NCBI GenBank assembly: GCA_964016885.1
Contig: OZ024752.1
Coordinates: 10,850,001-10,914,000 of the forward strand
Length of the DNA stretch: 64,000 nt
Reading direction: 5' to 3'
Source: Eledone cirrhosa
Taxonomy: Eukaryota
Part shown: piece after piece, positions 54,250-56,160 of the stretch
Layout of the letters: the number at the start of each line of letters is the position of its first letter
How positions within the stretch are numbered: the stretch's first letter is position 1
Position numbers and translations under genes: made by a program
The notes under the pieces: model-generated
Told to the model about the DNA's origin: nothing
The model's database searches: none
The model's input: only the letters and a program-made list of their open reading frames with translations

Positions 54250-54364
54250 ACAGTCCTTTCTGGTGATCTGGTTAAGCTAACATTGTATTTAAAATTTAGT
54301 TGCACAGCTTCAAGTGTTCAGCAATTTTTAGACAACTTAATCAGTGAAACATTTGTTAAACTGT
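54250..54364 (+). ncRNA. Hammerhead with 79-nt stem II (family G)
   Basis: acagt..ttt-CTGGTGA-t-ctggttaag..cttaatcag-t-GAAA-catttg-TT-aaactgt. The inverted partial copy at about 52935 has intact CTGATGA. Confidence 0.7.
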
Positions 54365-54659
54365 AAATAAAACCCTTTTGTGTACTGTTGACCATGTTAT
54401 TTTTCACTCTTTCAATATTATTACTCCAAGATAAACTAACATAGGAATCCCCGAGACCTCACAATCTTGCCACCTACGGAAACCTCTTGTTAAGACAAAC
54501 AACGCCGTACTCTAAAACTATCCACAACCTCTAACTGGATTACCTATAACAATATTTTGTTATCCTTATATATATATATATATATATATAAATATATATA
54601 TATATAAGGATAGGGCGAAACATTGTTGGCTAATAAAGACTTTTGATGTATTGAAGGCT

Positions 54660-55215
54660 TCTTTGACGGCAGAATAATGTTCGTTCAATTCTGTTATTCA
54701 GCAGTTTCTTCTTGTGTGTGATTATGTAATAAATCTCAAGATTACACAATTTGCAGAAATTTTGGCTCCTGGAAAAGCTTTGGGTTTTAGCTAATTTTTC
54801 CCATTTTAGGGTAAACTTTTGTAATCTTGAGATTTATTACATAATCACACACAAGAAGAAACTGCTGAATAACAGAATTGAACGAACATTATTCTGCAGT
54901 CACAGAACTAAAACCCTTTTTTTCCCACTACAAGCCGAATATTACATAAAAGAGGGACATCCCCAACTATATAAGCCTTAATCTAGTTAGAAAAATATAA
55001 AAACAATCTCTTCTCAACATATATTAATAACCTTAAATTACCACACTAATAATGGAAAGATATGCTGATGAGAATAGGTACAAATATGCGATAATGAATG
55101 TGTCTAAAAACGTCCATAAGTATGTATATATATGTGAAAATGTATATAAATAAGTAAATATATATATATGTTTGATGTGTATAGTTAGATGTAAGTGTAT
55201 TCATGTATTAAAGTG

Positions 55216-55264
<49 letters not shown>

Positions 55265-55975
55265 ATATGTGTATATGGATGTGTATGTATGTGTGTACAC
55301 ATGGACTAGAGTATGTATGTATATATGTGTGTGTCTATACGTGTGTATATAAAGATAAGTTGAGTATGAAAATGTATACACATGAGCGCGTATGTATGTA
55401 CATGAATACATGTGTGTATATATATGTGTATGCATGTGTATATATATGTAAGTATGAATATGTGAATTGTGAGTATATGTATTTTGTAGAGGTGTGCAAA
55501 TATATTTGTTTGTGAATGCGTGGGTGAAAGGATACGTACACTTGAAAGAAAAATTTAAGTCTGAATGTTAATTAAGTGCAAACACAAAACCAACCACGCA
55601 TATCTTTACTATCTCTAATCCTTCTATAGATTTAGAAAAATAACCAATAATATATTCTATAAAAAATGTCAAAACAACAGATGGGAATCTAATTACTCAC
55701 TGCCACCAAGAATTCTCACTGCTATCGAAAAACCACTCCTTCAACTATTCTTCTAACAACTTCACCCCTCCCTCCTAATATTCTCTATAAAAACTAAATA
55801 GGTCCTCAGTAATATTATTCTGATGAAATGACAGTAAATAATAACATTGAAATATTGAATGTCTGCATAACTAAAAGTTTGTAGATAGCAGCTGTTTTAG
55901 GTTATGTAACTGTTATAGAAACACGTGTCAATAAATTCCTTTCAACTAAACTGTATCCATTCAAATCTTTCTATA
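54660..55975. mobile_element. YRDD-type PLE 3' end with short inverted EN segment
   Basis: FCNLEIYYII...LLNNRIE...FCSH at 54815-54910; inverted copy at 54660-54750. Confidence 0.7.
55815..55934 (+). ncRNA. Hammerhead with 91-nt branched stem II, intact core
   Basis: ttatt-CTGATGA(55820)-a-atgacagt..actgttat-a-GAAA(55918)-cacgtg-TC-aataa. Confidence 0.75.
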
Positions 55976-56046
55976 TATATACATATATATATAAAGTGAA
56001 AGAGTGAAGAATAAACATGGTCGGCTGTACAAAAAGGATTTTATTT

Positions 56047-56160
56047 ACAGTATTAACAATTGTTCCATTGATCAGGTGAGTCTAAAGGCCGCTAATCACT
56101 CGAAGTTGCGTCACTCGACCTTAAATACAGTGTGTGTCTCTGATCAAATCATCGGAAACT
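56047..56160 (-). ncRNA. Diverged family-G long-stem-II hammerhead, decayed core
   Basis: Minus strand: agttt-CCGATGA-t-ttgatcag..ctgatcaa-t-GGAA-caattg-TT-aatactgt. Downstream sequence matches 54361-54413. Confidence 0.65.

Follow-up and report, generated by a model that had tools for sequence, protein, structure and literature searches.

Long, conserved stem II arms in hammerhead motifs of Hydra-type Penelope-like elements from Eledone cirrhosa

The window analysed here is a stretch of 64,000 nucleotides (nt) from Eledone cirrhosa (assembly GCA_964016885.1, contig OZ024752.1, forward-strand positions 10,850,001 to 10,914,000), whose genome is 3.0 Gb in size and rich in AT and microsatellites. 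It carries, on opposite strands, two copies of a hammerhead ribozyme motif in which a long arm of stem II separates the two parts of the core (Table 1). Both are decayed, and both belong to a large family whose type I hammerhead motifs lie in the pseudo-long terminal repeat (pLTR) of a Penelope-like element (PLE). The family is called G here, and its subfamily labels G1 to G7 are those of this analysis. An earlier sequence-only reading had reported the split cores around inserts of 79 nt (copy 1, plus strand) and 82 nt (copy 2, minus strand), with a basal helix in each, and all of this was recovered at the same places. It had also suspected that core substitutions leave both copies dead. A6G in copy 1 and A13G in copy 2 are indeed private defects, whereas the C4 of copy 2 is normal for its subfamily. 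Both window copies are probably dead; most copies of the family nevertheless keep the core. Folded alone, the window copies do no better than shuffled sequences (z of -0.9 and -0.5 for the whole motif, -1.6 and -1.5 for the insert). The predicted cut in copy 1 falls after 54357, and copy 2 ends on its 5' side 2-5 nt before the core, as do a third of its relatives.

DNA searches of the genome yielded 1,787 and 2,820 candidates. The pattern core-gap(70-100)-GAAACAATTGT was found 7,384 times (2 for the reversed control), the 49-nt inner frame of the G arm 5,294 times (1 for the control), and sisters with the same core and a short arm 9,914 times (47 for the control). Arm lengths are bimodal across the genome, with 9,914 matches at 8-38 nt, 293 at 23-52 nt and 7,384 at 70-100 nt, the three classes having been counted with slightly different patterns. 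The G module was not seen without its hammerhead: among 30 loci found by the inner frame alone, the 3' core is present in 29 and the 5' core in 26. Rfam 15 did not detect the motif. The scan gave no match in the window, and the 34 weak matches in eight loci all lie far under threshold and include no hammerhead. This fits the earlier expectation that length-capped searches would miss the motif, the published descriptors covering 7-17 or 35-50 nt (PMC8557442; this and the other published sources are cited from the available parts of their text). The only match in a metagenome collection was due to chance, having neither core nor pairing, and the viral contigs searched held no relative of the motif. 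Three presumed-RNA read runs matched in low-complexity parts only, and one run of uncertain type covered the motif as contigs. A literature search, with Dfam, Repbase and subscription papers outside its reach, gave no prior description of such arms. The long stem II arm is best regarded as an undescribed, selected variant of the Hydra-clade PLE hammerheads.

By its core, its helices and the base at position 17, the motif can be classed at the family level as a type I hammerhead. The family consensus keeps CUGANGA and GAAA, from which both window copies depart. Position 17 moves among U, C and A, never G (U, C or A in 47 of 48 copies). The A15.1-U16.1 pair is A-U in 135 of 136 sequences, the first two pairs of stem I hold in 128-130 of 136, with exchange between C-G and T-A, and the basal pairs of stem II in 99-129 of 136. 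The strict core shows 2 changes on internal branches versus 12 at the tips, a pattern that points to a core still under selection. The palindromic stem III (AACAAUUGUU/ACAAUUGU) occurs in most of 125 copies. Two features differ from the minimal hammerhead of PLEs. The core blocks lie 75-83 nt apart in all 125 copies, in place of a short loop 2, and positions 10.1-11.1 are paired in 16 of 136 sequences, being mostly U.U or A.A. The U.U opposition is a tolerated variant (PMC3088659) and is common in Hydra-clade motifs (PMC8557442). U4C and A9U, fixed in some G subfamilies, are both known natural active variants (PMC3088659, PMC10085705), and C at position 4 is also found in short-armed sisters. 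The A9U subfamily (L133, L135, L115, L137) combines a G2-like basal helix with a G3e-like middle helix, possibly as a chimera, and has been amplified despite its weaker core.

Other classes of motif were considered. Inspection against the consensus of selenocysteine insertion sequences and kink-turns showed no tandem sheared G.A in UGA/GA order, accompanied by an 11-12-bp helix in the former and a 3-nt bulge in the latter, and there was no Rfam match. Non-LTR retrozymes are non-coding tandem repeats of 150-400 nt; the G copies are dispersed and tied to an open reading frame (ORF) for a reverse transcriptase (RT) and endonuclease.

The PLE origin proposed earlier was borne out by a GIY-YIG remnant 720-970 nt upstream of the motif in G1, G2 and G3 copies and by a whole pLTR-ORF-pLTR unit at locus L164. 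The latter has one premature stop and an open stretch of 704 residues; its ORF encodes an RT followed by a C-terminal GIY-YIG domain, as read from the motifs YRDD and VY..YIG; Pfam gave no match on this ORF. The protein further contains RWK, DKT (from DKG), a CxCx5C linker, CxxC and CxH, without CCHH. Four ATGs precede the ORF, which begins ~380 nt past the core. The elements have pLTRs, an inverted partner and a tail, and are inserted into (TA)n. The tandem hammerheads of L164 are 3.55 kb apart, compared with units generally under 3 kb in the Hydra clade (PMC8557442), a trait that is descriptive and not strict. By these protein signatures the host elements are taken to be Hydra-type PLEs; the trees were built from unnamed homologues. 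The searches returned 126 protein homologues at 30-42% identity, most of them unnamed and one from sea cucumber. In the trees (one of 24 rows was dropped from the first, and 12 of 23 were kept for the second), G1, G2 and G3 form one clade with a support of 99-100 and share 65-67% protein identity. Families H (91-nt arm) and C (90 nt) fall in their sister clade, while family B (94-95 nt) groups with the short-armed S20 (support 82). From this placement the long arms arose either once, with loss, or at least twice.

A further hairpin, GCTCC..GTYGAGC, was noticed 25-45 nt before the start codon in L164 and ten other loci. It is present in all Hydra-type families seen, long- and short-armed, though the leaders are otherwise unalignable, and may be an element for translation or protein binding. 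The idea of a long leader intron that would end close to the start codon was rejected: its AG is not kept in H or S20, and the hairpin is the conserved feature there.

The fold of the G arm can be described from the base upward. It begins with the U.U or A.A opposition and an 8-bp basal helix, followed by an asymmetric loop, the fixed patch GUAUU/UAGAC and one bulge. The upper part consists of a 6-bp helix, the patch GAGU/YAGC, two loose positions and 3 bp closing an 8-nt loop. In this register the middle 6 bp with one G-C and the apical 3 bp are paired in 93-95% of cells, and RNAalifold, unprompted, gave the same middle and apical pairs. Over the whole rod, pairing is kept in 92% of 399 cells in 21 representatives, compared with 27-39% for slid registers. 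The inner helices of the sequence-only reading had to be replaced. Its apical helix (tgc/gca versus cgc/gcg) joins readings two columns apart that are not one homologous helix, pairs in 48% of cells of 21 aligned sequences, and needs private changes in copy 1. Its middle helix pairs in 76% of cells of the same sequences, and its registers overall in 68%, and covariation does not exceed that of shuffles. The word CTTC(A/G)AGTG that it had noted in the loop is common to G1 and G2, but the loops of G3 and G4 differ.

Several observations suggest that this pairing has been selected. Five of 136 sequences, which carry inversion junctions, were left out of the covariation, tree-branch and column tests. 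Eight of the 19 pairs changed on both sides, and on three measures 0 of 500 shuffles equalled the observed pairing. Changes that break a pair make up 15 of 43 (35%) on internal branches, inherited by at least three copies, and 50 of 71 (70%) at the tips (Fisher p 0.0004), a result favoured by the choice of the pair set from the same sequences. For this reason pairs were also read from G1 alone. Among changed pairs these are kept in 9 of 9 cases in G2, 5 of 6 in G4, 8 of 11 in G3b and 8 of 10 in G6, above a background of 34-68% (p 0.02-0.04 each), with no clear excess in G3a, G3e and G5. Unchanged columns oppose each other across the rod (6 pairs, 2.0 expected, p 0.004), and the non-canonical oppositions are its most fixed part. 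Among 48 copies found via anchors outside the motif, whose subfamilies are not independent, 46 retain the ungapped 49-nt frame, and their helix positions hold 39 G.U or U.G and 9 A.C or C.A, as expected for a sense-strand RNA. The arms of G1/G2 and G3 can be aligned (z 3.4-9.1; 52-64% identity, with 60-70% for coding DNA), whereas the 150 nt just upstream cannot for G3a/G3b against G1/G2 or G3e against G1 (z -2.0 to 0.5); for G3e against G2 the z is 3.8-5.1. About 16 independent deletions in the arm were counted by eye among the first 100 of the 293 mid-length matches, each with its own breakpoints and none amplified. The mean folding z of 88 G inserts is -1.65.

Three results weigh on the other side. 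In an R-scape-like test with a phylogeny-aware null, no structural pair reached E<0.05 (best E 0.83 over 6,681 pairs); 6 of 21 structural pairs rank within the top 24, and the top-ranked pair is an artefact of the anchored alignment. The number of unchanged columns in the 49-nt frame (17 of 49, 13.6 expected, p 0.11) is not unusual. Finally, in the lower patch of one G subfamily a T-A pair has become a fixed A.A opposition, which gives a better match to a splice donor. The proposal that the insert is a selected structural module is supported in aggregate, while the pairwise covariation that the earlier reading had asked for did not reach significance.

The ends of the copies bear on the place of the motif in the RNA. 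Their 3' ends are sharp and lie past the predicted cut, at 56 nt (G2), 61-62 nt (G1, G3), 45 nt (H) and 49 nt (S20), followed by an optional tail. They match the internal initiation of reverse transcription on uncut RNA that was demonstrated for the Poseidon element PAc (PMC11167929), and each copy derives from an RNA that had not been cleaved at the hammerhead concerned. On the 5' side, 31 of 94 G1, G2 and G5 copies end no more than 11 nt from the core (23 at -5 to -7), and the 30 nt beyond that hold 6 ends. In G2 and G5 position -6/-7 is an initiator-like A, with TATAAA 31-32 nt before it, and in G2, G5, G3d, G3e, G4, H and C a TATAWA precedes an initiator-like A by 29-33 nt. Transcription probably starts just before the core (6-13 nt), and short copies, copy 2 among them, would probably have run off at the 5' end of the RNA. 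A number of points speak against this start. No TATA box was seen in G1, G3a/b, S20, S11, B or T. In G3, whose initiator-like A lies at -13, the pile-up is weak, 8 of 100 copies stopping between -12 and -17; it is weak in H too, where, with a start predicted at -3, 4 of 100 stop no more than 8 nt from the core and 1 in the next 33 nt (both by eye). About half of the piled-up 5' ends are inversion junctions, and folding back of the cDNA at stem I would explain such junctions equally well. In S20 the stops of about 8 of 100 copies are spread over -5 to -22 (by eye). Inversion junctions were seen to cluster at stem I and at short palindromes in many loci (e.g. L011, L050, L111, L345, L369, L370, L400), which is consistent with a cDNA that folds back to prime the second strand itself.

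With such a start the RNA would carry the ribozyme at its capped end, and cleavage there would take the cap off. An effect of 5'-end cleavage on translation has been reported for viral type I hammerheads (PMC13725137), and by analogy cleavage at the capped 5' end of the PLE RNA could bear on translation.

Long arms are also present in the families H, C, B and T. Family H gave 2,557 pattern matches, many copies being identical, and the arms of T, B and C are 90-97 nt long. The arms of H, C and T fold strongly (z ~-3.5 to -5.9 in undamaged copies), that of B weakly. No homology of these four arms to the G arm was detected by sequence comparison, and the G model scores them at 19-43 bits, no better, except for C, than the short-armed sisters, which score 30-34 bits. 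Family T had no ORF upstream that could be found. Low-copy hammerheads with arms of 50-65 nt were also noticed (L002:209, L013:959, L062:3057, L317, L318, L341); the basal stem of some resembles that of a published octopus Hydra element, which hints at more independent expansions and points to a cephalopod as host.

In RNA structures, a recognition surface typically shows itself by helices that covary and hold two fixed non-canonical patches at a distance of one turn. The rod has this pattern, and a protein docking site is favoured for that reason. The arm, which likely lies in the first ~110 nt of the element RNA, is tentatively read as the place where the RT-endonuclease protein of the element itself docks, which seems quite possible. 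The Watson-Crick helices of the rod would only set the spacing, while the two patches GUAUU/UAGAC and GAGU/YAGC, with their A.G and U.U oppositions about one helical turn apart, would be read by the protein. The bound protein would keep the ribozyme together with the nearby site of RT initiation, 56-62 nt downstream, in one particle and would gate the timing of cleavage. The palindromic stem III implies a dimer (PMC4209133), which would most simply join the 5' and 3' pLTR copies within a single transcript. In vitro, protein assists a PLE hammerhead (PMC11167929). Other facts do not sit well with docking. In PAc, the only PLE assayed in vitro, the RT works on RNA truncated into stem II and needs no cleavage (PMC11167929). 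Short-armed sisters are at least as abundant, so that the clade as a whole does not need the arm. The arms of H, C, B and T are unrelated, which a conserved protein surface would not predict, and A9U is fixed in one subfamily.

Docking is compatible with its main rival, rather unlikely as it stands, in which the arm would be a retained spliceosomal intron in the 5' leader, retained introns being characteristic of PLEs. Its GT(A) and YAG would be splice sites that the rod joins and hides; splicing would leave a short stem II and the mRNA, and the unspliced RNA would be copied into DNA. The G frame starts with GTAT or GTAA and ends with a Y-rich TAG in 42-46 of 46 copies per position. A GT..YAG segment of 47-76 nt is present in all five long-arm families, and its removal leaves a closed stem II (9 bp with a tetraloop in H, whose intron-like signals are the best). 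The five per-family shuffle fractions of 0.03-0.22 combine to p ~0.03 (by hand, with G as 0.17 and T as 0.05), although no family is significant alone. The donors match at 4-6 of 9 positions and lack the +5 G in every case, and no consistent branch point was seen in G. The putative G intron of 47 nt is at the low end of animal intron lengths. The exon-side AC and the upper patch are fixed as well, and the covariation falls in the middle of the segment. Precisely spliced genomic copies were absent from the first 100 of the 293 mid-length matches and from H, but this weighs little since PLE copies normally retain introns. The position, ~+30 to +40 from the inferred start, recalls Penelope of D. 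virilis, with a 75-nt intron 46 nt after its start (PMC2377424) that ends abutting its hammerhead (PMC4209133), and Craig et al. expect such introns in other PLEs (PMC8557442). A further form, that the Hydra-type PLEs of this genome keep an intron inside stem II at the RNA 5' end, the rod pairing donor with acceptor so that one fold decides whether the RNA is spliced to a short-armed messenger or stays unspliced as a template bound by protein, is unlikely. Why PLEs keep hammerheads and introns are open questions (PMC8557442); an intron in stem II would, if true, join these two puzzles, intron retention and the role of the ribozyme, in one 80-nt unit.

The arm might instead be a hairpin expansion of loop 2, produced by fold-back or template switch and kept folded merely to spare the core, with no partner. 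In engineered hammerheads the length of stem II is free, five families or more have long arms unrelated to each other and others have arms of 50-65 nt, inversion junctions are frequent at stems I and II, and the short-armed sisters thrive. Such an expansion is nonetheless improbable: the 49-nt frame and the 78-83-nt length stay fixed across 35% protein divergence, the non-canonical oppositions are the most fixed positions and face each other, deletions arise yet found no subfamilies, and the lengths are bimodal. Still more doubtful is that the fixed bases belong, as DNA, to an internal promoter just past the start, with pairing as a secondary matter. The arm does extend over ~+14 to +100 from the inferred start, and in D. 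virilis Penelope an internal promoter overlaps the intron (PMC2377424). However, the compensatory changes and the bias for G.U over A.C point to RNA, the TATA and initiator lie outside the arm, and a word like the downstream promoter element at +28 to +32 fits G3a only. Very unlikely, lastly, are tertiary RNA-RNA contacts that would replace those between loops 1 and 2 or stabilise the dimer and so boost protein-free cleavage. Stem I is short, and lacks a closing loop if transcription starts at its 5' strand, and G cores carry the weakening U4C and U10.1.U11.1, which natural ribozymes offset by outer contacts (PMC3088659). The 8-nt apical loop, however, changes freely (27 internal versus 27 tip changes) and has no conserved complement downstream.

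Whichever function applies, the motif can be compared with known systems. The Hydra-clade PLE hammerheads of Craig et al. 2021 (PMC8557442) are likewise type I motifs in pLTRs, with a short palindromic stem III, a cut after U, A or C, and U.U at the base of stem II in 14 of 26 listed rows. Their elements share RWK, DKT and CxCx5C proteins, (TA)n targets, an inverted truncated partner and a tail. In contrast to the 79-83 nt and conserved rod of G, loop 2 measures 3-10 nt in all 26 listed rows, octopus included. The metazoan minimal hammerheads of PLEs (Cervera and de la Pena 2014, PMC4209133) also lie in pLTRs, with a helix II of 7-8 bp, a short helix I, a palindrome implying a dimer and, within each genome, many diverged families; G10.1-C11.1 and small loops are retained in them, and no long arm is described in the available text. 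Two hammerhead motifs of spike-moss PLE-X1 have an enlarged loop 2 (~30-35 nt) and were flagged as non-canonical, but they belong to plant elements without endonuclease and are half as long, and the available text shows no covariation analysis (PMC8557442). Poseidon PAc (Frangione et al. 2024, PMC11167929) resembles G in its RT start downstream of the uncut hammerhead, its fixed ends and its tail. Its ribozyme needs protein, comparable to the protein docking proposed for G. It differs in a short stem II that overlaps the start codon, as opposed to an ORF that begins ~380 nt past the core here. In D. virilis Penelope the start site and a short retained segment are also found early in the pLTR, beside the hammerhead; there the intron is proven and ends before helix I, whereas the G segment lies inside stem II and is a putative intron (PMC2377424). 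The discontinuous Clec2 hammerhead is another natural core split by a long insertion, yet it resides in mammalian 3' UTRs (untranslated regions), outside transposons, with an insertion of hundreds of nt and no conserved rod in its available description (PMC6765202).

At least 7,384 copies with a perfect core and arms of 70-100 nt have been overlooked by Rfam and the published descriptors, and animal hammerhead censuses are likely undercounts. The short-armed sisters of the same clade offer a natural comparison with and without the arm. The fixed non-canonical patches can be mutated without touching the core, and young families are available, such as H with copies identical over 171 nt.

Table 1. 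Positions in the window, or loci, of the G copies, their surroundings and the sister long-arm families
Feature	Position or loci	Strand	Remarks
Inverted, truncated partner of G1 element	52918..53123	-	intact CTGATGA core 52942-52936 and start of stem II
G1 GIY-YIG endonuclease	53129..53425	+	broken C-terminal remnant; tblastn matches 53175-53243 and 53288-53425, 43% to sister-family protein; frames broken
G1 element 3' UTR	53426..54247	+	split by unrelated repeat ~53487-53676; common to L026, L027, L028
Copy 1 stem I, 5' strand	54248..54259	+	
Copy 1 first core block	54260..54266	+	CUGGUGA; A6G private
Copy 1 stem II arm	54267..54345	+	79 nt; U.U base, 8-9-bp basal helix, asymmetric loop, inner rod
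Copy 1 inner frame	54285..54333	+	49 nt; GTATT...GAGT...8-nt loop...YAGC...TAGAC; two private changes
Copy 1 GAAAC..GUU	54346..54357	+	GAAA block, palindromic stem III (one private change), GUU
Copy 1 stem I 3' strand and end	54358..54580	+	AATAAA; family end point ~54418 (+62 nt); optional tail to (TA)n
Family H, between the copies	55786..55974	+	TATAAAA 55786; intact core 55820-55826; end point +45
Family H arm	55827..55917	+	91 nt, unrelated to G; GAAAC..GUC 55918-55929
Copy 2 stem I 3' strand and end	55997..56054	-	family end point (+56 nt); abuts (TA)n
Copy 2 GGAAC..GUU	56055..56066	-	GGAA block (A13G private), palindromic stem III, GUU
Copy 2 stem II arm	56067..56148	-	82 nt; inner frame 56128-56080
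Copy 2 first core block	56149..56155	-	CCGAUGA; C4 is the subfamily norm
Inverted tail joined to 5' end of copy 2	56156..56222	+	
Family C	L086, L097, L219-L221		arm folds as rod
Family B	L087-L108, L172-L174		arm folds as three-way junction
Family T	L081, L082, L089, L101, L180, L217, L218		arm folds as three-way junction

Further repeats were noticed in the window. The family H PLE at 54657-55974 is very young and comprises inverted and direct endonuclease pieces, the UTR, and the TATAAAA and intact hammerhead listed in Table 1. A very common short repeat, which we take by its look to be a tRNA-like short interspersed nuclear element, was found at 53487-53676 and 52746-52857, inserted in the G1 UTR and in many of the fetched loci. 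Broken RT pieces of related PLEs, 48-59% identical to family H, lie at 5168-6084 (-) and 47956-48853 (+). Short-stem hammerhead-like motifs of other repeat families were seen at 13658, 14625-14731, 15010, 19736, 35008, 52472 and 54619-54635.

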